Positions 2,005 through 63,096 of a stretch of DNA of 64,000 nt are shown here, piece by piece (position 1 is the stretch's first letter; each line of letters opens with the position of its first letter). Where the stretch lies: the IMG/VR virus record IMGVR_UViG_3300025098_005131; one strand, 5' to 3'. Under the pieces are notes generated by a model, which worked only from the letters and a program-made list of their open reading frames with translations, ran no database searches and was not told where the DNA came from. This DNA comes from a virus (taxonomy: Duplodnaviria; Caudoviricetes). The position numbers and the translations under genes are program-made.

Positions 2005-2361
2005 TCAATAAAAGTCTCTAGGTAAGATAGCGTCTAATGACTCTGGGGCACATGTGTTTTCAAGACACCTTCTAAATGTTACAACATCCTTTTCAGACTC
2101 ATCTAACAGAGATTGTGCAGCATTCTCAATTTGTTTTCTTGTCATAGCGTCAGAGATCATCCAAGATGAACACATTTGCGAAAAAATGTCAAGAAATGGA
2201 TGCTCTTCTGCAGAGCTTGCATGATCAAAATCTTTATGTCTTGGGTCATGTGTATCTTGAAATTCTGGCAAGCCAGGATCTGCTGTTATGTCGAGGTCGC
2301 CTATGTTTTCTGCGATAACGCTTCTGATAATGTTTCTTAGTTTACTTTCAGTAATTTTCAT
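2005..2361 (-). CDS. hypothetical protein with MKITExxLRxIIRSVIxE leader (probable virion internal protein)
   Basis: leader nearly identical to 55003..55419; GGAG RBS. Confidence 0.7.
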   Translation of the reverse strand: MKITESKLRNIIRSVIAENIGDLDITADPGLPEFQDTHDPRHKDFDHASSAEEHPFLDIFSQMCSSWMISDAMTRKQIENAAQSLLDESEKDVVTFRRCLENTCAPESLDAILPRDFY

Positions 2362-14752: not shown

Positions 14753-15673
14753 TTATTTATTATTTAAAAAGTCTTTTTTGTATTTTGCTAAAGCTTTTTC
14801 TTTGCATTTAGCTTCTAACATAATGTCAACTGACTTGCCACAGCTATCAAAGGGTTTGTAGTAAAAGTTTGAATGTGCTGCAGATGATCTTGTTGTTGGA
14901 TCTTCAAACTCTTTTTTACCGTTAGAATGATGACAAGTTGGTCGAATTGTAGAAGGCCATGAATCAAAAGCCATGTCAAAGCTCTCATCATAAGGTGCAT
15001 CCTGAGGTCCGAGACTAAAGTGATGAGAGTCGAAGACAATTGGAACGCCTGTAACCTTATAAACATTTTCGTATAGAAACTTTGAACTAAACATTGCAGC
15101 CTTGTCATCGTTTTCTACAGTAAGTCTTGACTGAACTGATGGCGATAGTCTTTGAAAGTTTTTATTAAAGTTGTCTGCGGCTAGTTGTAGATTGCCTCCG
15201 CATGATGAACCAAGATGAATATTGATTTTTGACCAGTGATTTTGATCTAGACCCATAAGATCGAAAAGCTTACCATGTATTTCTAGATCTTTAATACAAT
15301 TTTCTACAACATAATCTTTTTCTGATGCTAAACAATTAAATTGACCTGGGTGAAATGAAACTCTTTGACCAATAACTTTGGTATAATCGCCTGCCATTTT
15401 AAGATAGTGGCATATTTCTTCGTAGTCTGGAAGCTCATGCAACTCATATTCGCTAGCCCAAGGGGTAATTTCTGATGAGAGACGAAAGACTTCTACTTTA
15501 TTTTTGTAATTCCAGTTAAAGATTGGTAACATATCTTTGACATTTTGCAAAACAAGTGACGAAGCATACGTCAACCCTTTTTCAAGGAAAGTCTTTTTTC
15601 TCATTGTCCTAGAATTGAATATACCTTTTTCTCGTAGTTCCATATTGATGCACGCATATCCAAATCGATTCAT
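14753..15673 (-). CDS. uvsE: UV damage endonuclease
   Basis: RFGYACIN, FRLSSEI, SFHPGQF, IHLG, LTVENDD, FDSHH, HHS, HSNF, MLEAKCKE. Confidence 0.92.
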   Translation of the reverse strand: MNRFGYACINMELREKGIFNSRTMRKKTFLEKGLTYASSLVLQNVKDMLPIFNWNYKNKVEVFRLSSEITPWASEYELHELPDYEEICHYLKMAGDYTKVIGQRVSFHPGQFNCLASEKDYVVENCIKDLEIHGKLFDLMGLDQNHWSKINIHLGSSCGGNLQLAADNFNKNFQRLSPSVQSRLTVENDDKAAMFSSKFLYENVYKVTGVPIVFDSHHFSLGPQDAPYDESFDMAFDSWPSTIRPTCHHSNGKKEFEDPTTRSSAAHSNFYYKPFDSCGKSVDIMLEAKCKEKALAKYKKDFLNNK

Positions 15674-15764: not shown

Positions 15765-18527
15765 ATGAAAAATAGTATAAGATGGCTATTAACAGAATCA
15801 AAAATATCTAGTCTGGATCCGCAAAAAGTTAATTATGTAAATGGAAAATTAATATGCTATCACTTGACTTCACATCAAAAATGGGCGAATTATAATCCAA
15901 GTATAAAAGACAAGATGGAAAATCCATTAATTAAACACCCAAAACAAGAAGTAAATCCAGATGATGCTAGAGCTGTAAGAATATTAAAAAGTCTAAAAAA
16001 CAGTAATAGAGTTTCTGCAAGAGATTCTTACGATATAGAAGAAGAAACCATTATGGACATGTTAGATGATCCATATACAGATACTAGTGGTTTTAATCCA
16101 GGTGGTGGTGATCATCACGGGAAAGGTCTTTATACATGTTATAAGTTTAACCCAGGTATTGCTAGAACTTATGGAGATATATGTCTTGCTTTTGAAATAG
16201 ATATAAGTAATTTTGTAATAACGTTTGAAGATTTAGCTAAGCAAGTTCACGGTAATGACTGGAGAATTAAAGACCAGCTATTAAAACTTTACAAAAGAAA
16301 CCCAAGAGATGAAGAAAGCTTAGAAAAGTTTTTAAAAATTCTTAATAGAGTTGGATTTGACAAATTTGAGTTAAATCAAACAATAGACGAAATGAGACCG
16401 CATTCATCTGGAATTAGTTATGCCTTAATGAAAGCTTTTGGTAAAGAGCTTATAACTGCAGTATATGATGGTATTATTTTTCTTGGAAGAGGAGACGGTC
16501 CTGTTTGCGTTTCTTTTTACCCAAAATACGATGCTAGATTAATAGGATTAGGAAGACTTAGCAAAAGATCAGCGAAGGCAGATGTTGACTGGTATGACAG
16601 TCTAAATGATTTTGTAGGCGGACGTGCAAGAAACAAATTAGATTTCCAGACAATGAACGCTGTCGCAGATGAAAATACTAGTCTCGAAGAAAAAGAACTG
16701 ATGAAAGAAGATGAAAGAATATTTTATGATGCCAAGCACAACTATGTTCTATCTTCTCTTGACAACATTCGATATGCCGAAGAAACAATTCAAAAGCTAG
16801 TAGAGTTTTATGAAGAAGTTAAAAGCAGCAATGACGAAGGTGAACTTGGTGTATTTTATAGGGAAATTGGAACAGGTAAATTTACACAAAGCTTCAAAGA
16901 ATTTGATAGTTTGAGTCAAAAAGTTCTCCAGGAATATGGAAAAATCCTAGAAGATTCCTATCAGTTTTATAAGAGTAAAAACAATATTGATGAAGTTTCT
17001 GAAATGTTAAGAAACACAGGTTACGTTTTAAACTTAATGTCAAGTATTAATTTCTCTAGTGACTTTTTAGTTAATGGTGTCTATAGTGCTTTTAAGCTAT
17101 TCTTTGAAGAAATAGATAAGTTTGAGTATTATGAGAGAGCAGCTGCTAGCTTCTTAGAATCAGCAAATTCATACATTAAAAATACAAATGTGTCTAAAGA
17201 ATTTGTTCAATTAACTCAAGAACTAAATAATACATACGGCACTGATCTTAAATTAAAAACAGCCAGCTGGATTGAATTGATTGATTTATACGAAAACAGC
17301 AATCAAGAAACTAAAGATAAAATAACAAATCTAACAGACCGCATTTCACAGCATCCATTGAAAAAAATGTCAATGCCAGATCCAGACAACCCAGGTGAAT
17401 TCAAGCCAGTAGATTATTATAAGTCAAAAGAAGTAATAGATAAATTTTGTAATATTGTTGATGTAATGATTAAGAAACACAATGCAAATGTTTTAGATGA
17501 TCTTAGTTTAGCTTTTAAAAATGTCGAGCATCCTCTATCTAATACTGTTATAGAAAAGTGTGTAGACGAGTTGTTAGCGCTTCCAGAAAGTGAAAATAAA
17601 AATAGATTAACTGGTTATCTTGCCGATTATTTTGATAAATTTAGCTCAAGCAATTCTTCAGTAACTGATAAATTTGACGCTGTCTTAGATCTTGTAATGC
17701 AGTCAGCTGAAAAAGAATTTAATAAACTAATATCTAACCTTGAAAAGAAAACAAAGACACAAGCTGGCTTGTTAAGTTATCACAGTATTTATCATGATGC
17801 ATCAAGAAAACGTTATTTTGAAAGCCAGCCAAAAGAATGGCATGAAAGATTTGTTAATCTTATTATAGAAAACGTCAAGTCTAATCATAAGTTTACAAAA
17901 CTAAAAGAAGCAACGTGCAAGGTAATAAATTATTCAGTTAATCTTAAAGACATAAGAATAAGTGATCAAGATATGAGTCTAATATTAATTGCAGCAGGTA
18001 ATAAGGCATTTTGGTTTATAGACTATAAATACATGAGTCAAAGTGTTTATTGTAGCTTTTTAACATCTGCTTTACAGAATAAAGCAAATAATATTTTAAA
18101 TGCATGTCAACTGTCTGAAAATTTTTTCAAGAATCTCTATGAAAACAAACAGCTTCTTGACGCATTTATTCAATATAGTGACAATGGATTTTTTAAAAGA
18201 ACACTTAATCGATTAATTAGTCCACTTAAAGGACAAGCTTGTCCTTTAAGCGTTAACGCGTATAATCTATACAACAACAACATCAACACTCGAGTAGATA
18301 TGTCACAAGTAATTAATCCTAGTGATATTGAATGGTTTAATTACTTGTTAGAAGTAATAAGAGCAAAGACAGACTCAGGAAAGACAAAAAGAACAGAAAA
18401 GTTATTTAAAGAGTTCGATACTTTAATGTCACAGAAAAACGTAAGTCAAGAAATAGAAGCGCCTGAGTTAGATTTAAGTCATAGAAAAATATTTGGCAAT
18501 TCGCTTAAAGAAGTCTACAACTTTTAA
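15765..18527 (+). CDS. PARP-like ADP-ribosyltransferase domain protein, 920 aa (true start 15765); paralog of 60331..63096
   Basis: YHLT (His), GFNPGGGDHHGKGLYT (Tyr), YDGIIF, GPVCV; leader MKNSIRWLLTES; helical C-terminal two-thirds. Confidence 0.65.
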   Translation: MKNSIRWLLTESKISSLDPQKVNYVNGKLICYHLTSHQKWANYNPSIKDKMENPLIKHPKQEVNPDDARAVRILKSLKNSNRVSARDSYDIEEETIMDMLDDPYTDTSGFNPGGGDHHGKGLYTCYKFNPGIARTYGDICLAFEIDISNFVITFEDLAKQVHGNDWRIKDQLLKLYKRNPRDEESLEKFLKILNRVGFDKFELNQTIDEMRPHSSGISYALMKAFGKELITAVYDGIIFLGRGDGPVCVSFYPKYDARLIGLGRLSKRSAKADVDWYDSLNDFVGGRARNKLDFQTMNAVADENTSLEEKELMKEDERIFYDAKHNYVLSSLDNIRYAEETIQKLVEFYEEVKSSNDEGELGVFYREIGTGKFTQSFKEFDSLSQKVLQEYGKILEDSYQFYKSKNNIDEVSEMLRNTGYVLNLMSSINFSSDFLVNGVYSAFKLFFEEIDKFEYYERAAASFLESANSYIKNTNVSKEFVQLTQELNNTYGTDLKLKTASWIELIDLYENSNQETKDKITNLTDRISQHPLKKMSMPDPDNPGEFKPVDYYKSKEVIDKFCNIVDVMIKKHNANVLDDLSLAFKNVEHPLSNTVIEKCVDELLALPESENKNRLTGYLADYFDKFSSSNSSVTDKFDAVLDLVMQSAEKEFNKLISNLEKKTKTQAGLLSYHSIYHDASRKRYFESQPKEWHERFVNLIIENVKSNHKFTKLKEATCKVINYSVNLKDIRISDQDMSLILIAAGNKAFWFIDYKYMSQSVYCSFLTSALQNKANNILNACQLSENFFKNLYENKQLLDAFIQYSDNGFFKRTLNRLISPLKGQACPLSVNAYNLYNNNINTRVDMSQVINPSDIEWFNYLLEVIRAKTDSGKTKRTEKLFKEFDTLMSQKNVSQEIEAPELDLSHRKIFGNSLKEVYNF

Positions 18528-18536
18528 GGAAAGACT

Positions 18537-18821
18537 ATGTTACCGTTTAGAGAAAAGATAATTGAAGAAAACGAAACATATATACTTGTTCAGCGTGATT
18601 TCATGTCGACACTCATTGAAGAAGACCTAAACTGGCACATGGACGAAGAAGATCGTGATGTATTTGTTGTTGAAGGCGACGGTTGGTATTTACAAATAGA
18701 AAATGAGATACCCCAGTTGATGCAGAAAGAATCTATTTTCAAAATACCAAAAGAAACATGGCATCGAATAATTAATAAAAACGGCACAAATCTAATAATT
18801 AATGTGAGAAAATACAAATGA
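18537..18821 (+). CDS. cupin-fold protein
   Basis: WHMDEEDR...GDGWYLQ...IFKIPKETWHRI. Confidence 0.7.
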   Translation: MLPFREKIIEENETYILVQRDFMSTLIEEDLNWHMDEEDRDVFVVEGDGWYLQIENEIPQLMQKESIFKIPKETWHRIINKNGTNLIINVRKYK

Positions 18822-19039
18822 ATAGTTTACTTAAAGATCTTATACTTGAAATAATACTTTCAGAAGGCAATAAGCCGCCTAAGTGGCTTAGAAAAGCAAA
18901 AAAAGCAATGTATAAAGGAAAAGTTGTTAAAGTAGTAGAAGCAGATGGACCCGGGCCTATGTCTATTATAAAGCTTAGAAGTGGTAAAGGAAAGACAAAG
19001 CAAGTTATGACTAAACATTTAAGTAAGGTTAAGAAATGA
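18818..19039 (+). CDS. small basic protein with LxE leader and SH3-like body
   Basis: MNSLLKDLILEIILSEG; YKGKVVKVV. Confidence 0.55.
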   Translation: MNSLLKDLILEIILSEGNKPPKWLRKAKKAMYKGKVVKVVEADGPGPMSIIKLRSGKGKTKQVMTKHLSKVKK

Positions 19040-20796
19040 TTTTATTAGAAAAATACATAAAGACTTTTTTAAAAGAAGCAGCATCGACAGCTATTATTAA
19101 AAGAGCAAGTGACATTACAGGTCAAGGACAACACCAAAGTGCTGCTTCTTACAGTAATAATATGACAGAAATAGGCAATCAAGAAGTTTTATTAAAACTT
19201 CTTGAAAATGTTGGTAGCAATTGTTTTATTTCTTTTGTTGATAAGTATGATGAAAAAATTCCTAGACTCGAAGTAAGCCCTGAAGTATCATATGATACGC
19301 CTCACGGAAATTACGCTTATCCACTTACTGTTAAGTCTTTAAAGGATATCGTTGAAAAAAGCAGCATTGGAGGGGCAAATTTTGCGATTGAAAGACCCTA
19401 CTTTCATATGTTTAAAAAATCTAATAGTGCCCAATCTGTAGAAATACAACCTGATGGTAGCAACAACTATAGCGGTAGTTATAAAAAAGACTTAAGAACA
19501 ATCGTGCATACTGCAGTTATGTTTAATTCAGCCAAAAAATTAGAAAGTAATCCAATAAAATATGCAGCGCCATCTGACTCTGGTGAAGAAGAAAACAGAT
19601 TAATAAATTTTGGGCGGACAAAACGTCGTATAAAAAGAAAAATAAATGCTAATTCAACACCAAGTCAAGCAAGAGACAGCATATTCAGCAAGACAATGTT
19701 TGCTTTAATTGAAGACTTATGCTATCTTGTCAATCTTAACGACAAAAAATATCCAAGAGAAAGCGTAGAATTAATTGTTGACTACTTAACTAAAGCAATA
19801 GAATTTAAAATTAATTCACGTCAAAATAAATTTTTTAATCGTAAAAATGGAGAAAGTGAATTATTGTCTAAGTTTCATGGACTATATTATGCGTGTTTTA
19901 TGCTTGCAAAAGTAATGTCAGATGATATAGATATATTTGAAGATGATGATGCTAATGCTTTTGATGTAGATAAAATAAACAACCCTAAAGAAAATAGAGT
20001 GCGTCAAGGGTCTATTTTTACAATGCTGTTAAACTCTATTGATATAGACTTTATAAATGACAGAGGATCTAAAACTTTACATCCTAGTGAACCTATACAA
20101 GCTGTTTACTTGAATTCATCTAAAAAAGAAAATGTTGTTTTAGTTGGAACGTTTAAAAATATTTTTCAGATTAAATACTCTCGGGATTACAAAAAAAATA
20201 AAGAACCACATGACCCGGTTACGATGAATAAAATTGTTGATATTCTTGTAAAAAATCCTCAACTTAATGATCTTTTTGGAACAGAACTTTTTGACGATGC
20301 AAAGCTAGATAATCAAGTAGAATTTGATAGAAAACTTGCATGGGCAGATTTAACTAAAAAGAAATTGCTCATTGCAAAATTTATACAGTTCCACTCAACA
20401 AACGATATTTTTAATTTAAACATGTATGTTGGAGATAATGAATTAATAATATTTGATATTGGATTAAAAGGAAACTTTGTTAATTTACCAATAAATGAAA
20501 AGATTATTTCAATAAAAAACAATTTAAAAAAGATGGCAAAAATTGAACATCGTCTTGACTATATTGGAGTGTTTTTAAATAAACAAATGTGGAAAAACAA
20601 AAATCTTTATACTACTCACCCCTACTCAGCCCAGTCAATGTATGAGATTTGCGATAAAGTTTATACAGAAATGGAAAATTACTTGGCAAGCTTAGATGAT
20701 TTAGGTAAAAAAGAAAATCAAGAAAAATACATAACAATTAAAATGTTTGTTGAGTTTTTGGAGCAAATTATTATTTTTCTTCAAAATTTAAAATAA
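19036..20796 (+). CDS. probable virion internal protein with TPHGxYxYP domain; paralog of the ORF at 63144
   Basis: leader MILLEKYIKTFLKEA; EVSPEVSYDTPHGNYAYPL...NFAIERPYFH. Confidence 0.65.
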   Translation: MILLEKYIKTFLKEAASTAIIKRASDITGQGQHQSAASYSNNMTEIGNQEVLLKLLENVGSNCFISFVDKYDEKIPRLEVSPEVSYDTPHGNYAYPLTVKSLKDIVEKSSIGGANFAIERPYFHMFKKSNSAQSVEIQPDGSNNYSGSYKKDLRTIVHTAVMFNSAKKLESNPIKYAAPSDSGEEENRLINFGRTKRRIKRKINANSTPSQARDSIFSKTMFALIEDLCYLVNLNDKKYPRESVELIVDYLTKAIEFKINSRQNKFFNRKNGESELLSKFHGLYYACFMLAKVMSDDIDIFEDDDANAFDVDKINNPKENRVRQGSIFTMLLNSIDIDFINDRGSKTLHPSEPIQAVYLNSSKKENVVLVGTFKNIFQIKYSRDYKKNKEPHDPVTMNKIVDILVKNPQLNDLFGTELFDDAKLDNQVEFDRKLAWADLTKKKLLIAKFIQFHSTNDIFNLNMYVGDNELIIFDIGLKGNFVNLPINEKIISIKNNLKKMAKIEHRLDYIGVFLNKQMWKNKNLYTTHPYSAQSMYEICDKVYTEMENYLASLDDLGKKENQEKYITIKMFVEFLEQIIIFLQNLK

Positions 20797-20846
20797 ACTA
20801 TTCTGGAATATTTTATAAGGGCGAAAATTGATTAGGTTGCATTGAA

Positions 20847-21248
20847 ATGAGTAACGATTTTATTTTAGAAGAGTATATTAAAGAAGCTTTATTAATCGAA
20901 AGCAAGAAGAAAAAGAAAGATCCTAAAGTAGGCACAGGTAAAAAACCCAAAGGAAGTGGAAGACGTTTATATACAGACGAAAATCCTAAAGATACTGTAA
21001 GAGTAAAATTTAGAACAGCTACAGATATTCGTGATACTCTTTCAAAAAAATCTTTTAAGTCTAAATCTCATGCTAGACAATCACAAATTATAAATTTAAT
21101 CCATCAGCGAGTTAGAGCTGCTTATAGAAATGCAAAAGACCCAAAAGTAAAAGCACGACTCAAAAAAGCATATGAATATGCAAAGAAGCGAAAAGAATCT
21201 TCAAAACAAAAAACGAAAAGAATAAATAAAAGCAAAAACAAGAAATAA
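20847..21248 (+). CDS. Lys/Arg-rich protein with acidic LLxE leader
   Basis: MSNDFILEEYIKEALLIES then poly-K; RRLYTDENPKDT. Confidence 0.7.
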   Translation: MSNDFILEEYIKEALLIESKKKKKDPKVGTGKKPKGSGRRLYTDENPKDTVRVKFRTATDIRDTLSKKSFKSKSHARQSQIINLIHQRVRAAYRNAKDPKVKARLKKAYEYAKKRKESSKQKTKRINKSKNKK

Positions 21249-21284
21249 TTATTTTATATAAAAGAAGACTTTTGAGTAGCAACA

Positions 21285-21581
21285 ATGCAAGATTTATTAA
21301 TGTTAGAAGAATTTATTAGAGAAACCTTGTTAGATGAGGCAAGAAAAAAACAAAAGAGGAAAAAGAGTAAATCAAAAAAGAAATCTCCAGAGAAAAAATA
21401 TCCATCTCAATATAAAGCTAAAGGTAAAAGAAAAAAGAAGTTAGATCGTGCAACAGATTTAGCAAAAAGTAGCAAAGCATCTGACAGACAAAAAGCTTAT
21501 AAAATGAGAGATAATATGGAAAAGTCTGAGAGAAAGAAAAAAGGTTACAAAAACGTTCCAAGGCATGATAGTAAGAAATAG
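21285..21581 (+). CDS. Lys/Arg-rich protein with acidic LLxE leader
   Basis: MQDLLMLEEFIRETLLDEA then very basic body. Confidence 0.7.
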   Translation: MQDLLMLEEFIRETLLDEARKKQKRKKSKSKKKSPEKKYPSQYKAKGKRKKKLDRATDLAKSSKASDRQKAYKMRDNMEKSERKKKGYKNVPRHDSKK

Positions 21582-21591
21582 GAAAATATAG

Positions 21592-21963
21592 ATGAACGAC
21601 TTGATATTATTAGAAGAATTTATTAGAGAATCATTATTAGATGAAGCCAAAAAAGGTAGAAAAAAGAAAAAGAAAAAAAGTTCTGCCAAAAAAAAGACTA
21701 CTAAGAAAACAAAAAAGAAGTCTTCGTCAGGAGGCTTGTCTGCAGCTACAAAAGAAACTTTAAATAAAAAGGCAGACAAAAGAGGTTTAACAAGAGGTTC
21801 TGTTTACGCTGAGTATAGAAAAGGTTTAGCAGCTTGGGCAACTAGCGGTAGTAGAAAAGGCATGTCGCAACATCAATGGGCTCATGCAAGAGTTAACTCA
21901 GCAACACCTTCAAAGCCTTGGGCTGTTGTTAAAAAGAAAGCTGCCGGCAAAAAGAAAAAATGA
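21592..21963 (+). CDS. Lys/Arg-rich protein with acidic LLxE leader
   Basis: MNDLILLEEFIRESLLDEA; YRKGLAAW...QHQWAHARVNS; leader DNA shares 21 bp exactly with the previous gene. Confidence 0.7.
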   Translation: MNDLILLEEFIRESLLDEAKKGRKKKKKKSSAKKKTTKKTKKKSSSGGLSAATKETLNKKADKRGLTRGSVYAEYRKGLAAWATSGSRKGMSQHQWAHARVNSATPSKPWAVVKKKAAGKKKK

Positions 21964-22616
21964 ACAATCTACTAATAGAACATAAAAAAATATTATCTGA
22001 AGGCTTGCAGTTTCATTTAATAGAAAGTATAGGAATAGAAAATAATATCTACCGCCCAGGATCCTCTAAATACTTCAGTTTGTTTAGAGAAGTAAGAGAC
22101 TTAAGTGAAATAGGTTTATATGAATTAAGTCCAGCAGAAGCTTATTATATTAACGAAACAAGTATTGGTGAATGGGACTTTTACAATGGTGATCTTGTCC
22201 CCTTAGACTATCCTATTTTGGAAGGTGACGAATCTTTAAAAGCAAGTATTCCTCTAGAAATATTAGAAGAAAAGCGAAAGCGAAAAAAGAAGAAGAAGTC
22301 ACGCAAAGGAAAGAGCACGAAAAAAAGTGGCAACATGTATAAAGGTAAAAAAGTTGAGCTTAATAAACCTAGAAGAGGTGGTTCTAAAAAGTTTTATGTA
22401 TATGTTAAAAACCTAAAAACAGGAAATATTAAAAAGGTTCAGTGGGGTGCAAAAGGAATGTCTGTAGGTATTAGTGATCCTAAAAGAAGGAAATCATTTG
22501 CAGCTCGTCACCGATGTCATTTAACTAAAGACAAAACAACAGCAAGTTATTGGGCCTGTAGAACTGGCAGGTATCCTCATTTGACAGGAGGAAAAAAGAA
22601 ATATACATGGTGGTGA
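21960..22616 (+). CDS. basic protein with acidic propeptide-like N-half
   Basis: ILSEG, ILEE then poly-K; KKFYVYV...RRKSFAARHRC...SYWACR. Confidence 0.7.
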   Translation: MNNLLIEHKKILSEGLQFHLIESIGIENNIYRPGSSKYFSLFREVRDLSEIGLYELSPAEAYYINETSIGEWDFYNGDLVPLDYPILEGDESLKASIPLEILEEKRKRKKKKKSRKGKSTKKSGNMYKGKKVELNKPRRGGSKKFYVYVKNLKTGNIKKVQWGAKGMSVGISDPKRRKSFAARHRCHLTKDKTTASYWACRTGRYPHLTGGKKKYTWW

Positions 22617-22617
22617 T

Positions 22618-23109
22618 TTATTTTTTAGAAAACTTTTTATAACCTTTAACAGTTCTGTTATTAAATCTTTTTGAAAGATAATTTCTAAGTTCATCTGTCA
22701 TATTAAAATTCGCTAGTTTTTGATCGTCAGGTACATTATTGATTTTTTTTACTAACTCTTTTATGAAATCATTTTCTAAATCATTGTCTACAATTGCTGA
22801 CGTATCATCATCGACATCAAAATTAGCCATAAAGTTACTTGGCCGATTTTCATCTTTAAGGCTTGCTAAAGATTTAATAAGTTCTGCTACATCTAATGCG
22901 CCACCAACAGGAGTAAAACCTAGTGCTGCCTTTATTACTTCTCCCCCTTTTTTAGCCTTACCTTTCAGGACTGTTTTATTTAAAAGGCTTTTTAACTCAC
23001 CGTATGTAGTGTCTTTATTTATATTATTGAAAGGATTTTCTAGCAATACTTTTTTGTTTAAAGAAGTTATTTTCTCTTTAATATAGTTTTCAAGAATTTT
23101 ATTGTTCAT
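22618..23109 (-). CDS. hypothetical protein with LxE leader
   Basis: MNNKILENYIKE...VLLEN. Confidence 0.65.
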   Translation of the reverse strand: MNNKILENYIKEKITSLNKKVLLENPFNNINKDTTYGELKSLLNKTVLKGKAKKGGEVIKAALGFTPVGGALDVAELIKSLASLKDENRPSNFMANFDVDDDTSAIVDNDLENDFIKELVKKINNVPDDQKLANFNMTDELRNYLSKRFNNRTVKGYKKFSKK

Positions 23110-23177
23110 ATTTCATCCTATAATGATTTTTTCTCATATATTTACTATATATTTGATTTGCTATAAAAAGGTAAGAT

Positions 23178-23543
23178 ATGAAACCGTATTATTATATTGC
23201 TGATGTTGTAAAAGTTTATGATGGCGATACGTGCACATGTGTTGTTGACTTAGGCTTTAAAACGTCTACGCGCATTAAAGTAAGACTTGTAGGTATTGAT
23301 ACACCAGAAGTTAGAACAAAAGACTTAGACGAGAAAGAAAAAGGTTTAGCAACACGTGATTGGTTGCGTGAGAGAATTCTTGGTAAGAAGGTGCTATTAC
23401 ATACAGCCAAGCGAGGAAAGTTCGGTAGATGGCTTGGAACCATTTGGGAGTTAGAACAAGATAAACCTGAGTTTGAAAATAGTTATAATAAACAATTAAT
23501 AAACGAAGGCTTAGCTAAAGAATACTGGGGTGGCAAAAGATGA
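23178..23543 (+). CDS. thermonuclease (SNase) family nuclease
   Basis: VYDGDT, VRLVGIDTPE, GKFGRWLG, LINEGLA. Confidence 0.9.
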   Translation: MKPYYYIADVVKVYDGDTCTCVVDLGFKTSTRIKVRLVGIDTPEVRTKDLDEKEKGLATRDWLRERILGKKVLLHTAKRGKFGRWLGTIWELEQDKPEFENSYNKQLINEGLAKEYWGGKR

Positions 23544-26485
23544 AATATAGTCTTAAAAATGAATATAAAAGTTTACTCAAAGAAGAAATGTTTAGTTTGT
23601 ACAGTGAAGATGATTTTGAGGTAGATTATTTAGACAATGAAGAAGAAAACTTTAATCAAGACTATGTTGAAATATCGCCTAGGAAAAATGCTATTTTAAA
23701 AAACAAAGATCTTCAAGACAAGTCTTTTATATACTCAATTGAAAACATTGATGATTTGAAAAACAACAAAGAATTACAGCTAAATTATGTAGATACAATT
23801 TTTTCTGGAAGACTTGACAATATAAATACTTCTTTAGACACAGAATACAAGGCTTTAAATACAAAGTTAAAAGCGAGAAGTGTATCAATATCTGGATTGT
23901 TTTCAAAATGTTTTCTTACAGCATTTAAGAGCTTTTACATTAGTAAGTCTCTGTCGCCAAAAGAAATAAATTTTAGTTTTAATGACGAAAAAGTTAGATT
24001 AAATATAAAGACTTGCTATGAAAAAGAAATAGAGCTACTTATTGCCAAGTATAAAATAGAAACAAATGGTGACAAAACTGTAAAAATAAACAAAAGTCAC
24101 AAATCATTTATTAGTACATGGCCTGGAGAAAGTTTTGCAGATAGAATAAGCTTTAACTCATCACAAAAGCCTTATTGCAAGTCTAAAAACAAAGATCTTT
24201 TTGACATTTTTTATGACGAATTCTTAAACAAAAAAGACAATAAATTAATGTCTTTTAATATACAGAGTCTTGATCGAGATGAATTCAAAGCAGGAAAAGC
24301 TAAGAATATAGAAATAGGAAAAATTATTTTAGACTTCTATACGACAGAAAAGTCTGTTGATATATACGAGTATTGTTCAGAAAATGATTTAAGACAAGAT
24401 GTTAGTAGCATAAAAGAAATAATAGACAAATTAAATAATTCTGAGTTTGCAAAAACTTCACTAAGTTTTACTAATTCAAATGCAATAGGTCCTGGAGAGT
24501 TTGCTTGTCATTTATTGTTTAATACAAACAATGCACTTCTTAATATTGAGCCAGACGTTATTTTTAATTTTAATAAAGGAAAGGCATCAGTAAAAAACTT
24601 TAGGGCAGGTGGTGTAAGAACAGGCACAACGATGTCTTATGAGATTAAAACATCACTTACTAATTTATTTGAATTCATCTACAAAGATAAAGTCGATATT
24701 AAAAATTGGAATGAGTCAAAGTTTAACTTTTCTCAAGTTGATAACGATAAATATACAGAAAACTTTAAAAAATATCTAAACAAAGACGAAACTGAAAAAG
24801 AGACGCATGATAAATTAAAAAAAGAATTACAAGGTTTGTGGAAAGATCTTAAAAAAAGTGTTGCATTTGAACATAAGGCTGACTTTGTTATCTGTATTGA
24901 TGAAACAAAAAATCCTTTAAGTCCTTTTTATTTTGTTGATAAAGATAATTTTAACAAATACGAAAGTCAAATCAATATTATAAGCTGCAGAGAAGGAAGA
25001 GTTAATTTTTTAATTACTAGAGACAGACCTTTTTCTAGTTCAAAAATTAATAAAAGCTTTGATGACATTTTAAAAGAAAATGCCTTTAAAAAAGAAAGCA
25101 TGCTTAAAGAAGCTTATTCATACTTATTTAAAAAAAAAATAATTAGTGAAGGTGGTTTAGCAGGTCATATGATGCATCCTTATGAAGCATTAGATATGAC
25201 GCCAAGACAGATCATTGATAGAATAAAAGAATATAGCACTTCACAAAAGATTATAGAAAAAGTCGATGGACAAAACTTATTCTTTACAGTCGAAGAAGAC
25301 GGCACTCTTATGTTCGCTCGCAACAAAGAAGATATGACGCACGATGATCTAGTAGAAAAGTTTACTAATCACCCAGCAGAAGTTCCATTTGTTACAGGTG
25401 GTAATGCTATTAAGAAAGGTGTAGACCAGTGGTTATCCTCTGCAGGTGCATTTGGAAGTCAAGAAATACTAGATATCTTTCACCCAGATGGTGAAGCTAG
25501 ATCATTTATAAACTTTGAAATTATGCATAAAGACCACCCAAATCAATTAGAATACGGAGAAAACTTTATTGTTTTCCATAGCATTGTTGATTTTATCAAT
25601 GGAAGGGAAGCAGTTTATTCTTCAAACAACAGTCAAAGGCTCAATAAGTTAATTAATCTTATGAAACCGGGCATTGAATCTTCTAATTATACGCTAGCAT
25701 CTAATAGAACAGTTGATATTAATAAACTTACAAACGTACAGATAACTCATTATGTAGATAGAATCAAAGAAATTGCTAATCAATTAGACATTACTGAGTC
25801 TGAGTTTCTTGGAGACGGGGTAGAAAAACAAATTAAAAAACAATTAGATGCTGAAGGCATTAATATTAGTGACGAAGCAATAAAGATTTTATATGACTTT
25901 GCACTTTATGGTGAAGATAGACTAGGTAATAAAATAAAAAGTAAAGACTTTACTAAACTAATGAAGCCTGACGATATAAAGAAGCTAAGAGCTATTAATT
26001 TAACTAGTGCTAACAAGGCAGCAGCTAAAGTAAGAAGTATATTGTCTCCGTTTAAAGATATATTTGTTGATCTAGGTATGAACTTGTTAGACGGCACACC
26101 TTCAGCGTATATGGATTCTGAAACTGACTTAAGTAATATTGATAATTTGCGTGACAAGTTAGAAACTGCGATTGATGATCTCAGGATGTATATGAATAGT
26201 ACGCCAGAAAACAAATGGGATCCAGTAGTAAATAGACTTAAACCACATTATGATAAAGTTGTTGAAGCAGGCGTATACAATACAATATCGACTTCAGTTG
26301 AAGGAGGTGTTTATGACTATCAAGGTGACCTTCTAAAAGTTACTGGTGGGTTTGCACCGTTAAATCAGATTTTAGGCGCAGCATACAGAGATAAAAAAGG
26401 CATATTTCCAACCTTTAAACAAAAGTTTATGAAACAGGAATCAAATAGAAGATCTTTAAAATCTGTTTTTAATTTAGTCTACTAA
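23540..26485 (+). CDS. 981 aa protein: N-terminal possible PD-(D/E)xK-like region plus C-terminal RNA-ligase-like nucleotidyltransferase
   Basis: C-half motifs I EKVDGQN, III NFEIM, IIIa IVFH, IV VEGGVY, V LLKV; LLKE leader; internal ILKE/MLKE/IISE sites before GGLAGHM. Confidence 0.7.
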   Translation: MKYSLKNEYKSLLKEEMFSLYSEDDFEVDYLDNEEENFNQDYVEISPRKNAILKNKDLQDKSFIYSIENIDDLKNNKELQLNYVDTIFSGRLDNINTSLDTEYKALNTKLKARSVSISGLFSKCFLTAFKSFYISKSLSPKEINFSFNDEKVRLNIKTCYEKEIELLIAKYKIETNGDKTVKINKSHKSFISTWPGESFADRISFNSSQKPYCKSKNKDLFDIFYDEFLNKKDNKLMSFNIQSLDRDEFKAGKAKNIEIGKIILDFYTTEKSVDIYEYCSENDLRQDVSSIKEIIDKLNNSEFAKTSLSFTNSNAIGPGEFACHLLFNTNNALLNIEPDVIFNFNKGKASVKNFRAGGVRTGTTMSYEIKTSLTNLFEFIYKDKVDIKNWNESKFNFSQVDNDKYTENFKKYLNKDETEKETHDKLKKELQGLWKDLKKSVAFEHKADFVICIDETKNPLSPFYFVDKDNFNKYESQINIISCREGRVNFLITRDRPFSSSKINKSFDDILKENAFKKESMLKEAYSYLFKKKIISEGGLAGHMMHPYEALDMTPRQIIDRIKEYSTSQKIIEKVDGQNLFFTVEEDGTLMFARNKEDMTHDDLVEKFTNHPAEVPFVTGGNAIKKGVDQWLSSAGAFGSQEILDIFHPDGEARSFINFEIMHKDHPNQLEYGENFIVFHSIVDFINGREAVYSSNNSQRLNKLINLMKPGIESSNYTLASNRTVDINKLTNVQITHYVDRIKEIANQLDITESEFLGDGVEKQIKKQLDAEGINISDEAIKILYDFALYGEDRLGNKIKSKDFTKLMKPDDIKKLRAINLTSANKAAAKVRSILSPFKDIFVDLGMNLLDGTPSAYMDSETDLSNIDNLRDKLETAIDDLRMYMNSTPENKWDPVVNRLKPHYDKVVEAGVYNTISTSVEGGVYDYQGDLLKVTGGFAPLNQILGAAYRDKKGIFPTFKQKFMKQESNRRSLKSVFNLVY

Positions 26486-27110
26486 ATAAAATATTAAATA
26501 TTTCTTCTTTATCTTCATCATCTATATCTGGTAATCCATCTAAAAATAAAAATTTATCTTGAGAAGCATTTGACAGATAAGATCTCATTAATGTTCCACT
26601 TATATTTGGTGAGTCGTCACCTCTTTCAAACGATTTAATCCAAACTCTATCTTTTATGTTTTTATAAAATTTGTCTTGATATCTATTTGAGTCATCTTTT
26701 CCAGTATATACTGCATACGTTTTGTCGTTTATGTTTCCTTGTTCAGAAATATCACCTAAAAACTTGTAAACGTTACCAACAGGAGAACCACCATATACAC
26801 ATTCTACATTTTCAGGAAGATAACTTGTTATAATATTTTCCCAAATAAACTGCATATCTTCTCCATAGATAGTTATCTCACCTTTTCTCGAACGATCAGA
26901 AATAGAAACATACACTATTACTTTACTACATTGCTCAGCAGCTTTTTGTATTAAAAACATATGACCTTTATGAAAAGGTTTTGCAGACATTGGTACTAAT
27001 CCTACACTAAAAAATTGAGGATCTTCTCTTTCTATGTTAACGCTAGAAAGTATCTCGTCTTCTTCTTTGAGAAAACTTCTCCAGCTTTCTACCAATAACT
27101 TTGTCTTCAT
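26469..27110 (-). CDS. HIGH-superfamily nucleotidyltransferase (cytidylyltransferase/NMNAT-like)
   Basis: AKPFHKGH (HxGH), YTGKDDSNR, ISGTLMRS (KMSKS-like); leader MKTKLLVESWRSFLKEE. Confidence 0.85.
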   Translation of the reverse strand: MKTKLLVESWRSFLKEEDEILSSVNIEREDPQFFSVGLVPMSAKPFHKGHMFLIQKAAEQCSKVIVYVSISDRSRKGEITIYGEDMQFIWENIITSYLPENVECVYGGSPVGNVYKFLGDISEQGNINDKTYAVYTGKDDSNRYQDKFYKNIKDRVWIKSFERGDDSPNISGTLMRSYLSNASQDKFLFLDGLPDIDDEDKEEIFNILFSRLN

Positions 27111-55002: not shown

Positions 55003-55419
55003 ATGAAAATTACAGAAAGACGTTTACGTTCAATTATTAGAAGTGTTATTAGAGAGTCACGTGCTGACAAGATGTTAGATTATCACGTAGGTCATGGTGA
55101 TCATCCAGACTATGATCCTGCAGTAGGTCAAGATCGTTCTGAGACGTTGTTTGATATAAGCGGCGATCGCCCTACTGAGCCTTATTCTCCTCCTATGAAA
55201 GTATCAAAACAACTTATGGATTCTGCAAGAGCAAACTCATATCTTCAAAAGTATAGTCCATTAAAATCAAGAATACAAGGAAGTGTAAGTTGTAAACGTT
55301 CTAGCGAGCGTTTTCCTGATGGCTGGAGCTGTAGTGTTAAACTGTCTGAAGACGGGCGCATTGTGCCTGTAATTATTCACATGAGCTACGACGGTGACAT
55401 AGAAGTACAATACATGTAA
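55003..55419 (+). CDS. hypothetical protein with MKITERRLRSIIRSVIRE leader
   Basis: leader shared with 2005..2361; AGGAG RBS. Confidence 0.7.
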   Translation: MKITERRLRSIIRSVIRESRADKMLDYHVGHGDHPDYDPAVGQDRSETLFDISGDRPTEPYSPPMKVSKQLMDSARANSYLQKYSPLKSRIQGSVSCKRSSERFPDGWSCSVKLSEDGRIVPVIIHMSYDGDIEVQYM

Positions 55420-60330: not shown

Positions 60331-63096
60331 ATGACAAAGTATAGTTTAAAAGAAAATTTTCTTATTAAAGAAAATAAAGGAATAGAGTTAAGAGGAAACA
60401 AGCTTTCAGTTTATCACTTAACAGGTGCAGAAAAGTTTAAAAATTACTCGTCTTATGTAAAAGATACAAAAAAGCCTTTTAAACCTAGTAAACCAAGAAA
60501 AGTCAAAGATCGTGCTAGAAACATTATTAATAGAGTTACTTATGACAAAGGCAGGAGTGGTGCAACCACGCAAAGCAAAAGTGACATAGAGTTTCAAGGA
60601 ATTACAGAACTACTATCAGACCCGTATACAGTAGGAACTGGGTTTACACCTGGCCACGGAGATATGTACGGCCCAGGATTATATACATGTTACGACTTTA
60701 ACCCTTCTATTGTTCATTTGTATGGGGATATATGTTTTAAATTTGAAGTTGACATTAGCAATTATATTATATTTTTTGAAGATCTGGCTAAACAAATTCA
60801 CGGTGATAAATGGAAGCTAGAAGACCAGATAGAAAAGTTGTTTGATGAAAAGTTTTCTTCTCTTGCAAAAGACGAATTATTTGCGAAAACAAAAGAAGAC
60901 TTAAAACAATATTGCACTCCATTAACACAACGAATAAATGGGACTAGTTATTTAGTGGACGATCCTAACAATAAAAATCTAACTTCATCTTCTGCTTTTT
61001 CTTTTACTAAATACGTCATGGGTAATTATACACCTAAGTATTTAACTTCTGTCATAGACGGTATTATATTTAGAGGTGACCATGACGGACCTGTTTGCGT
61101 TGTTTACAATCCGCAAAGAAAAGCAAAAGTTGTAGAATTAGGTAGAGTTGTAGGTAAAGAAGTAGAATGGCATTCAAACGTTGCGAGTTTTTTTCCAGAC
61201 CAAAAGCTAGCATTAGACATAGATTTTGAAACTCTAAATGATATTGCACAAGAAAACGATGTCGACGAAGAAGACTTTAAACAAGATCAGCTACAAAAAG
61301 TAGAAGGACTTTTGCCTACACTTTATTGGTGCAATGAAATCAATAAAGTTGCAGACTCTCCTGATCTAACATACGAAATGATACAGAAGGTTTATGACTT
61401 AGTTGTTAATGACAACTTAAAAATAGAAACAATGTTTATCAATCACGTTTTGTTTGCAAATACAAAAAGTAAAGTAAATAAAGCTGTTGGCACAGGTGGT
61501 AATCCATTACAAGCCTTTAAAGTTGACCAAAATAACATAGAAAATATTCACTTAGAATGTTTAAACTTAATAACTGAACTTTGTAAAAAAATAAACTATT
61601 TCACAGACAATGACGTTAATTATTATTTTCCAAGATTTTTAGATGTAATAACTTCTCCAATAAACAAGCAAAGTGTTACAAAAAAAGATTTCGAAAGGTT
61701 TATTGATATTTACATAGAAAATGCAGACAAAGTCAGCTATGGTATGTTAGTTTTTCGTAACATACAATATGGCGGCCACTTATCTGTAAATGATATGTTA
61801 TTTTCTAGAAAGTCTCTAAATAAGTTAAACAGTCTTGACAATAGTCGTTTAATGATGAACGTAGAATTGTATCAAGTTTCTCAATTAGCAAGATATCGAA
61901 GTCGCTTAGATAATCTTACTGGCCAAGATATACTTGATGTTTTAATAAAAATGCTTACTTTTTACTTTCCGACAAAAAACAAAGACTATAAAACAGCAAT
62001 TTGCAAGCTTCCTTGGGAAAGAAAATACTTTACAGAATTACCTGAAATTCAGCAGTTTCTGTTTGAAGAGCTTGATACAATTTCTTCAGCACAAATTGCA
62101 GGATCTATTGACACTATGACTCGTGGTGTTTTTACCTTATTCCAAAATGAAATAATAAGCTGTGTAAGAATTGATCTTTTAAATAAAATAATTGATATAA
62201 TTTTTGAAGACATCGATAGATTAGGCACAAAAGCTAGACAGAATGTTGAACAAAATTTATTAGACATTAGAGATGAAAACATTAAAAAACAGATTACAAA
62301 CCAGAAATACCACCAATTTGTTAATCAAAAGCTTGACACTGCAAACAATTGGAGTCCTTTAATTGATGAACTCAAGCAATCACAAACGCCTGCAGAAACC
62401 CGATTAATACTTAAAAATAATAGAAAAGTTGAAACAAAGAACAAAGAATACGCTGAAGCATTGGTTTCAGGCATAATTTCAGGTGATATTCCTCCAGATA
62501 TTAGCAATCTCCAAATGTATTTAAGATGGATTAGTTATGAAATAAAGCTACCATTTCAGACACTCATCTCTTTATGTGAAGCTTGTTTTAGTTATATTGA
62601 TATCAAACCAAACAGTAAAAAACATTTTAATGATCTTTTAATGCTTTTGTTAAGATCTTCGAAAGGTGTAGAACAATATCTTGAGACTATTGCTCTGTTA
62701 AAAACAATACCAGAAGCTCACATGAATAGTTTAGAACTAGGTAGAATACATTATACAGAAGGTGACAACGATTTATTTGAACAGGTTGCAAATAATTCTA
62801 GTCTGCTATCATTGTTTTTTAGTGGGATGAGTCAGCGGCAAGTTCTTAAAATTGCTAAGGGCATACATCGAAGCGTCAATTATGCAGTAACACTTGCACC
62901 TGGCGCCAATTTATATTTACCTGACGAAGGTATTGAAATCGTAATAGATTATATAGAAAAAATGTTTGGCAAAGGATCTATACTTAAATTAATTAGTGAG
63001 ACTAGACATCTACTTCTACAAAGACAAAACTCGCAAGATCCGCAAGAATCAAATGAGACACTAATTAAAAGATACATTTCTTTAATTCTGTCTTAA
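60331..63096 (+). CDS. PARP-like ADP-ribosyltransferase domain protein, 921 aa; paralog of 15765..18527
   Basis: YHLT, GFTPGHGDMYGPGLYT, IDGIIF, GPVCVVYNP; leader SLKENFLIKE. Confidence 0.68.
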   Translation: MTKYSLKENFLIKENKGIELRGNKLSVYHLTGAEKFKNYSSYVKDTKKPFKPSKPRKVKDRARNIINRVTYDKGRSGATTQSKSDIEFQGITELLSDPYTVGTGFTPGHGDMYGPGLYTCYDFNPSIVHLYGDICFKFEVDISNYIIFFEDLAKQIHGDKWKLEDQIEKLFDEKFSSLAKDELFAKTKEDLKQYCTPLTQRINGTSYLVDDPNNKNLTSSSAFSFTKYVMGNYTPKYLTSVIDGIIFRGDHDGPVCVVYNPQRKAKVVELGRVVGKEVEWHSNVASFFPDQKLALDIDFETLNDIAQENDVDEEDFKQDQLQKVEGLLPTLYWCNEINKVADSPDLTYEMIQKVYDLVVNDNLKIETMFINHVLFANTKSKVNKAVGTGGNPLQAFKVDQNNIENIHLECLNLITELCKKINYFTDNDVNYYFPRFLDVITSPINKQSVTKKDFERFIDIYIENADKVSYGMLVFRNIQYGGHLSVNDMLFSRKSLNKLNSLDNSRLMMNVELYQVSQLARYRSRLDNLTGQDILDVLIKMLTFYFPTKNKDYKTAICKLPWERKYFTELPEIQQFLFEELDTISSAQIAGSIDTMTRGVFTLFQNEIISCVRIDLLNKIIDIIFEDIDRLGTKARQNVEQNLLDIRDENIKKQITNQKYHQFVNQKLDTANNWSPLIDELKQSQTPAETRLILKNNRKVETKNKEYAEALVSGIISGDIPPDISNLQMYLRWISYEIKLPFQTLISLCEACFSYIDIKPNSKKHFNDLLMLLLRSSKGVEQYLETIALLKTIPEAHMNSLELGRIHYTEGDNDLFEQVANNSSLLSLFFSGMSQRQVLKIAKGIHRSVNYAVTLAPGANLYLPDEGIEIVIDYIEKMFGKGSILKLISETRHLLLQRQNSQDPQESNETLIKRYISLILS

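Follow-up and report, generated by a model that had tools for sequence, protein, structure and literature searches.

The locus described here lies in a 64,000-nt stretch of DNA, analysed as a whole and referred to as the window, from IMG/VR virus record IMGVR_UViG_3300025098_005131 (Duplodnaviria; Caudoviricetes). Its subject is the gene that we call copy A (P0003), which encodes a protein with a predicted ADP-ribosyltransferase (ART) fold near its N terminus; computation established the gene and its family, the fold, which residues are conserved and that its leader motif is enriched. The window genome is large, phage-like and of low GC content (about 31%), and its genes include those for a DnaE-type polymerase, GroEL, an ATP-dependent ligase, purine-synthesis enzymes and a sigma factor. 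In the list of open reading frames (ORFs) and their translations, copy A runs from an ATG at 15765 to a stop codon at 18525-18527 and yields 920 amino acids (aa), arranged as a leader, an ART-like head, an alpha-solenoid and a conserved tail (Table 1). A longer frame with a TTG start at 15537 is not the gene: it crosses the AT-rich divergent intergenic promoter region. All the motif strings quoted by an initial annotation of this DNA are found in the ORF, with CYHLTS at aa 31-36, SGFNPGGGDHHGKGLYTCY at aa 108-126 and VYDGIIFLGRGDGPVCVSFYPKYD at aa 233-256.

Table 1 Features of copy A, its paralogue and other loci of the window mentioned in the text (pLDDT, predicted local distance difference test)
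Feature	Position	Strand	Description
Copy A (P0003), whole gene	15765..18527	+	920 aa; leader, ART-like head, alpha-solenoid, conserved tail
N-terminal leader, aa 1-11	15765..15797	+	MKNSIRWLLTE; pLDDT below 50; ends in hydrophobic-hydrophobic-x-Glu
ART-fold domain, about aa 20-300	15822..16664	+	AlphaFold2 model; two helical inserts, aa 37-100 and aa 155-233
His33	15861..15863	+	Strand 1, YHLT; within strand 28-35; at least 90% conserved
Tyr123	16131..16133	+	Strand 2, GKGLYT; within strand 122-125; invariant
Tyr136	16170..16172	+	End of the helix after strand 2; invariant, followed by invariant Gly137
Asp244-Gly245-Pro246-Val247	16494..16505	+	Hairpin loop and start of the strand that usually carries the catalytic Glu
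Alpha-solenoid (HEAT/ARM-like), about aa 320-893	16722..18443	+	AlphaFold2 model
C-terminal tail, aa 902-920	18468..18524	+	LDLSHRKIFGNSLKEVYNF; conserved, disordered in the model
Copy B (paralogue)	60331..63096	+	921 aa; ART-like head, unrelated C-terminal 600 aa, different leader (MTKYSLKENFLIKEN) and tail
Island downstream of copy A	18537..26485	+	Mostly leader-tagged proteins, including three Lys-rich paralogues and the 981-aa P0002
Lys-rich paralogue, first	20847..21248	+	Small, very Lys-rich
Lys-rich paralogue, second	21285..21581	+	Small, very Lys-rich
Lys-rich paralogue, third	21592..21963	+	Small, very Lys-rich
P0002	23540..26485	+	981 aa
Leader-tagged putative nucleotidyltransferase	26469..27110	-	213 aa
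Endonuclease gene	14753..15673	-	Divergent from copy A
GTGTAA-N18-TATAAA	15680..15726	-	Directly upstream of the endonuclease gene
Small leader-tagged protein (ORF at 2005)	2005..2361	-
Small leader-tagged protein (ORF at 55003)	55003..55419	+

Copy A belongs to a large family without a name. A word-indexed search returned 110 metagenomic homologues, none of them named, and a profile run exhaustively against 1.84 billion cluster representatives recovered 661 relatives at E ≤ 1e-3 (counted as cluster representatives at 50% identity), most of which share just the core of the N-terminal domain. We located 26 family loci in IMG/VR viral contigs; a scan of 185,579 prokaryotic species genomes with the close-family alignment found no member of the close family. 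The family is thus far found in uncultured viral contigs only. A second copy lies near the other end of the window (copy B; Table 1), and one 107-kb viral contig has orthologues of both copies. Conservation was assessed in two sets, one of 26 close relatives and one of 47 diverse relatives.

The head was modelled as residues 1-330 with AlphaFold2, using a 26-sequence alignment as input (pLDDT 81.6; predicted template modelling score 0.79); disorder in this model is confined to residues 1-11, where pLDDT falls below 50. The split beta-sheet of an ART core, which the initial annotation had expected in this region, is present, and it superposes on PARP catalytic domains. Against 48,161 representative PDB chains, the top rows returned by VIA-align were PARP4, PARP2, the plant RCD1-PARP domain, PARP3, PARP1 and PARP10, with Z scores of 5.1-5.5, about 125 residues aligned and root-mean-square deviations of 3.4-4.9 Å (3.4-3.9 Å in the best rows). 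Nearly all of the 50 rows are members of the ART superfamily, including tankyrase, the TASOR pseudo-PARP, MbcT, ParT, NatT, cholix, exotoxin A (ExoA), diphtheria toxin (DT), Tpt1 and DarT, and the toxins with an Arg-Ser-Glu (R-S-E) site rank below the PARPs. Among viral predicted structures (BFVD), the best Foldseek match is a 'PolyVal ADP-ribosyltransferase' (E 8.3e-4, prob 1.00); further entries for ART-PolyVal and PARP come after it. The AFDB clusters matched by the head are DUF3990, ART-PolyVal-like, RES and PARP, with DUF3990 and ART-PolyVal in the lead, and a shape search of the ESM Atlas returned mostly unnamed clusters, plus DUF3990.

Sequence comparison points in the same two directions. 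Three of the 47 distant relatives match the Pfam PARP model (PF00644), all below its gathering threshold of 26.7 bits (best E 1.5e-4, 21.4 bits), and the segment YH.T...GF..G..YGKG.Y of the family profile aligns to the His/Tyr region of PARP10; searches of PDB sequences with phmmer and the family profiles gave chance-level rows save for a weak PARP10 segment. For ART-PolyVal we used a protein of Salmonella phage Vi01 (PF18760, 41.8 bits), the cluster of which carries both PF18760 and PF13151, together with an alignment of its relatives. Alignment of the copy A family to this set with hhalign gave P = 7.2e-4 (Prob 26%) over 74 columns that cover the His-Tyr half only and bring the His of strand 1, the Tyr of strand 2 and strand 3 into register; none of the 47 family members matches PF18760 or PF13151 at E values up to 0.1. 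Because the match list is uniform and independent libraries agree, individual scores being modest, we consider it very likely from the predicted model that the head of copy A has an ART-superfamily fold. The fold matches and the His/Tyr alignments to PARP10 and ART-PolyVal also bear out the assignment, in the initial annotation, of a PARP-like ART of the His-Tyr (H-Y) branch rather than the R-S-E branch of T4 Alt. As a side observation, the top row of the Foldseek search of the PDB is chain B, residues 1418-1606, of entry 9k3a, the cyanophage A4 pre-ejectosome (E 0.064, Z 5.3); this match is weak and may be due to chance, and the A4 paper makes no mention of an ART-like domain.

Y123, Y136, G137, G236, D244 and G245 are invariant in the 47 diverse relatives, and conservation there is 90% or higher at H33, Q171, G241 and the four glycines of a G-x-G-x-x-x-G-x-G loop. 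In the 26 close relatives the invariant set comprises Y32, H33 and L34; G113, G115, G119, Y123 and C125; Y136 and G137; D235 and G236; and D244, G245, P246 and C248, and because of this invariance the motifs quoted by the initial annotation are not chance resemblances. His33 aligns to the His of the PARP10 YH(G)T motif and to His23 of ART-PolyVal, and Tyr123 aligns to the Tyr of PARP10 GKGVY and to Tyr50 of ART-PolyVal; they are the first two residues of the classical H-Y-[E/D/Q] triad. Tyr136 presumably corresponds to the second active-site Tyr of PARPs.

The third position of the triad probably differs. In the 47 relatives, D244 and G245 are invariant, position 246 is freely variable and position 247 is mostly Val. 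When the C-terminal half of the domain is aligned by hhalign, V247 falls opposite the invariant Glu136 of ART-PolyVal; the alignment, which does not reach significance (E 0.1), is anchored where F251-x-P253 pairs with the F-x-P of ART-PolyVal. By this alignment, Val247 most likely occupies the canonical strand-5 Glu position. The statement in the initial annotation that a hydrophobic residue replaces the Glu is therefore probably right, as far as a non-significant alignment can carry it, but it had missed the invariant Asp244-Gly245. PARP10, with the triad H-Y-I, lacks a strand Glu yet is an active mono-ART. We know of no PARP counterpart of the Asp244-Gly245 motif. Because Iyer et al. (2017, PMC5512222) give the active site of ART-PolyVal/Tox-ART-HYD2 as His, Tyr and Asp, an H-Y-D enzyme with its acid on a loop is conceivable, and Asp244, three residues upstream of Val247, may supply that acid; alternatively, the Asp-Gly turn could be purely structural. 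On the modelled head and these residues, copy A is probably, although by no means certainly, an active NAD+-using enzyme.

The remainder of the protein evolves differently. The initial annotation described about 600 aa of helical sequence after the head, and the AlphaFold2 model of residues 320-920 (pLDDT 88.1) agrees, with an all-helical solenoid. Its structural neighbours are generic helical repeats only, such as karyopherins and designed repeats, and for this reason we draw no function from the body; a feature search of the ESM Atlas with the body found nothing. In most aligned orthologues identity to copy A is about 54-67% in the head and 15-21% in the solenoid, which marks the head as the constrained, enzyme-like part and the body as the fast-changing part. 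The solenoid is probably a scaffold that binds a target or partner. Invariant columns within the C-terminal 600 aa are found in the 19-aa tail only; the near-invariant positions are L902, D903 and K915 of the tail and one mid-solenoid Tyr. Tail codons differ synonymously between loci, placing the conservation at the protein level. The SLKEVY motif of the tail is also the N-terminal leader of two distant family members (P0131 and P0132). Across the window and related loci (380 ORFs), a tail of the copy A type is present only on copy-A-type proteins and, weakly, on P0002, a restriction that led us to reject the tail as a general tag on many proteins. Its role may be that of a docking peptide or, through Leu-Lys-Glu, of a second site for a protease.

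At the other end of the protein, the leader (aa 1-11) is conserved in copy A orthologues. Its closing motif, hydrophobic-hydrophobic-x-Glu, lies within the first 20 residues of 28 of the 63 window proteins, compared with 12.4% of internal 20-residue windows (p = 3e-10), and most of the recognisable housekeeping enzymes lack it. Of the 86 ART-family members that have an N-terminal domain, 54 carry the motif ahead of the His strand (background 10%), with a median distance to the His of 12 residues. The same leader types also head unrelated proteins, namely P0002 and the ORFs at 2005 and 55003. The latter two encode small proteins 50 kb apart with a common 19-residue leader, MKITE..LR.IIRSVI.E, and the type MKITE..LR..IRSVI.E occurs on ART relatives of other phages as well (P0173, P0185 and P0210). 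The capsid-targeting sequence (CTS) of T4 is about 10 residues long and ends in a hydrophobic-x-Glu-type site that is cut by the prohead protease (Leu/Ile-x-Glu). T-even internal proteins share only this sequence, which directs them into the scaffolding core (PMC3012670). The packaging leader proposed by the initial annotation is plausible in these terms, given an unstructured aa 1-11, its LLTE end and the N-terminal enrichment; a T4-type head protease was not found in five incomplete related fragments. Whether copy A is packaged into the head and injected is, in our estimate, an evenly balanced question.

From the predicted structure and the conservation we infer a phage effector of four modules, and with them NAD+ binding, catalysis, packaging, cleavage, injection and a target, as follows. 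The flexible 11-residue leader, with its Leu-Leu-Thr-Glu end, would load the protein into the prohead in the manner of the T4 CTS and its Leu/Ile-x-Glu site, and the head protease would trim the tagged protein there. Injected with the DNA, it would modify a host protein early in infection; the putative function in the initial annotation was to reprogramme host transcription or to disable defence proteins. The head would bind NAD+ through His33, Tyr123 and Tyr136 and would act either without a strand Glu, in the manner of PARP10 (Val247), or with Asp244 from the adjacent hairpin; under either option, a single ADP-ribose would most likely be transferred to a host macromolecule. The fast-evolving solenoid of about 570 residues would probably pick the target or partner, a role that could account for paralogues that keep the head and swap the body. 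The disordered, conserved C-terminal peptide would hold another Leu-Lys-Glu site. For this reading as a whole, a packaged, injected, leader-tagged mono-ART effector with a solenoid, we judge the chances to be about equal either way.

Several results weigh against it. On similarity, Foldseek found nothing below E 1e-3 for the head model in the PDB, and VIA-align gave no single strong structural match (Z ≤ 5.5); no model in Pfam, PHROG, NCBIfam or PADLOC matches copy A or copy B, and tblastn with P0003 and two distant relatives found no relative in 50,697 cultured-phage records. On the active site, the canonical catalytic Glu is most likely absent, judging from the sequence. On packaging, the T4-type late promoter TATAAATA was not found upstream of copy A, and PF03420 (the T4-type prohead protease), PF07068 and PF07230 were not found in five related viral fragments; these fragments are 14-42% complete and yielded none of a head protease, a capsid protein or a portal, an incompleteness that makes their silence no evidence of absence. 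Finally, the leader motif is present on 44% of the window proteins, so that some 'leaders' may be ordinary N-terminal helices.

The points on packaging would all suit an active ART that is made during infection and stays unpackaged in the cytoplasm, like T4 ModA and ModB, with Leu-Leu-x-Glu being just a short helix or a product of AT-rich composition. Such an enzyme would be at home without a late-type promoter and without a head protease in the related fragments, 44% is a large share of proteins for virion cargo, and copy A adjoins nucleotide-metabolism and nuclease genes, not head genes. We nevertheless find this account unlikely. The leader is unstructured in the model; identical leader types stand on unrelated proteins and on ART relatives of other phages, whereas the recognised housekeeping enzymes of the window mostly lack the motif; and the small, Lys-rich tagged proteins nearby resemble T4 internal proteins.

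A second alternative keeps the fold and changes the chemistry, to that of an NADase or NAD+ phosphorylase (RES/MbcT), to DarT-like ADP-ribosylation of DNA or to KptA/Tpt1-like removal of an RNA 2'-phosphate. NADase or NAD+ phosphorylase activity is considered possible for some phage ARTs (Iyer et al. 2022, PMC9503650), the canonical Glu is most likely missing here, RES/MbcT, DarT and Tpt1 are among the structural neighbours (Z 3.0-4.8, with RES also in AFDB), and a leader-tagged nucleotidyltransferase with a weak NMN-adenylyltransferase match is encoded nearby. PARP and ART-PolyVal nevertheless outrank RES/MbcT, DarT and Tpt1 in every search, the sequence bridges lead to PARP and ART-PolyVal, and the conserved set is His/Tyr/Tyr, not the R-E-S of RES. 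The KptA active site, for its part, is a basic tetrad, unlike the His/Tyr/Tyr of the copy A family. We regard these other chemistries as improbable. The head could also be a catalytically dead pseudo-ART with a structural or binding role in a large protein, either internal to the virion or ejected from it, for which the solenoid would be the scaffold. This would account for the probable absence of the Glu, for the pseudo-PARPs TASOR and PARP13 among the matches (Z 4.9-5.1) and for the match to the A4 pre-ejectosome domain, but it is very improbable in the face of a near-invariant H33 and invariant Y123, Y136 and D244-G245 in a highly diverse family whose proteins vary freely elsewhere, which is the pattern of an active site, and of a head far more conserved than the body.

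The preferred reading, a packaged mono-ART effector, gains context from the paralogues. The first ~300 aa of copy B are 37% identical to those of copy A (E 4e-54) and the remainder cannot be aligned. In two natural proteins from metagenomes, P0004 (1419 aa) and P0017 (1430 aa), a copy-A-type protein is fused in frame to a shorter second ART module; the modules are joined exactly at SLKEVYNF, and the second module ends in SLKEVYNF too. A relationship of the P0004 extension to a 586-aa neighbour or to P0002 was considered and rejected, the extension being this second ART module. Two contigs of related phages (L002, 3167-8763; L029, 3001-8633) each have a tandem pair of copy-A-type genes in which the stop and start codons overlap, and the L029 pair lies in a different neighbourhood, beside genes for thymidine kinase and dCMP deaminase. 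The tandem pairs and this relocation indicate that copy number and position of these genes vary. A slow head with a fast body, varying copy number, tandem pairs and fused forms make up the signature of an arms race. One could go further and see a modular addressing code, in which the 6-8 residues of SLKEVY.. would act as leader, fusion junction and tail, a head protease would load, separate and trim cassettes of 'ART head plus solenoid body', and Asp244 would be a non-canonical acid; we give this extension little credence.

Among known systems, the nearest by fold and residues are ART-PolyVal (PF18760)/Tox-ART-HYD2 with DUF3990 (PF13151), as the best viral fold match with the His and the Tyr in register, and PARP (PF00644); the nearest analogue by function is T4 Alt. 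ART-PolyVal is the ART domain of polyvalent proteins of phages and conjugative elements (Iyer et al. 2017, PMC5512222). Like copy A, it is encoded by phages and its delivery together with the DNA is predicted, and fused multi-ART forms exist in both families. The Vi01 protein (149 aa; FQ312032 141852-142301, which is 1447-1896 of our locus L028) also has a T4-like leader, MKTFLEFYRE, very close to the T4 CTS. Unlike ART-PolyVal, the domain of copy A has about twice the length and contains two helical inserts; it has Val at the catalytic Glu/Asp position (in the non-significant alignment) and an invariant Asp-Gly three residues earlier, and its partner domain is an alpha-solenoid, not other enzymes. 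Among PARPs, which supply the top matches to solved structures, the likeness is greatest to H-Y-hydrophobic mono-ARTs such as PARP10, with YH.T and GKG.Y aligned. Unlike PARPs, copy A lacks a regulatory or helical subdomain, and P0003 has no match in Pfam, PF00644 included, at E values up to 1.

T4 Alt is a head-packaged, injected ART that modifies host RNA polymerase. If copy A is packaged, the two would have in common a propeptide at the N terminus, entry into the head and injection, and both have paralogues in the same genome. Alt belongs to the R-S-E (Alt/VIP2) clade (PMC5512222), whereas copy A is on the His-Tyr branch, has no Arg-Ser-Glu site and shows no sequence relationship or specific fold relationship to Alt. 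The leaders resemble the CTS of T4 internal proteins IPI-III in being short N-terminal tags on unrelated proteins with a hydrophobic-x-Glu end (PMC3012670). Unlike in T4, this phage has several tag types and many more tagged proteins, and in the copy A family a tag-like motif also occurs at the C terminus and at module junctions.

That H-Y-type ARTs are embedded in virions and injected has been proposed before, and myoviruses and jumbo phages show a strong enrichment of ARTs (Iyer et al. 2017, 2022; PMC5512222, PMC9503650); the concept of a head-packaged H-Y-type ART is thus already known. New here is an unnamed, purely metagenomic family with an architecture of leader, ART head, fast-evolving solenoid and conserved tail, together with its fused and tandem forms and, instead of the strand Glu, an Asp-Gly hairpin that is invariant. 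If its members are active and injected, a large unnamed PARP-like branch joins the effectors of phage takeover and anti-defence, and T4-style, tag-directed loading of the capsid would extend to very large (about 100 kDa) modular phage enzymes. The conserved catalytic head on a fast-evolving body offers a testable model of how an effector changes its target, and the invariant Asp-Gly hairpin is a candidate for an alternative answer to a missing catalytic Glu.

Copy A opens a plus-strand island (15765-26485), the order of which is conserved in the related contig L002, where two tandem ART genes stand in place of the one in the window. The three Lys-rich proteins of the island share the leader LEE(F/Y)I(R/K)E.LL.E and, by analogy, look like T4-style internal (DNA-associated) head proteins. 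P0002 matches no model in Pfam, PHROG, NCBIfam or PADLOC. Its leader, MKYSLKNEYKSLLKEE, is of the M.YSLK...LLKEE type found in a subfamily of the ART proteins, its C-terminal tail, RRSLKSVFNLVY, resembles that of copy A, and a KVDGQN segment at about aa 570 recalls motif I of nucleotidyltransferases and ligases; the idea that P0002 is a diverged ART was rejected (hhalign Prob 0.2%). Next to the island, on the minus strand, the leader-tagged 213-aa protein has a weak PHROG match to nicotinamide-nucleotide adenylyltransferase/cytidylyltransferase (E 1e-6), and on this sequence match it is a possible NAD+ link beside the cargo island.

On the other side of copy A, a conserved upstream TTACAC was considered as a signal for copy A and rejected: it is the -35 element (GTGTAA) of the divergent minus-strand endonuclease gene. 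The full element of that gene, GTGTAA-N18-TATAAA (Table 1), is a variant of a GTGTAA-N17/18-TATAAT promoter, exact copies of which occur six times in the window, compared with 0.12 expected.

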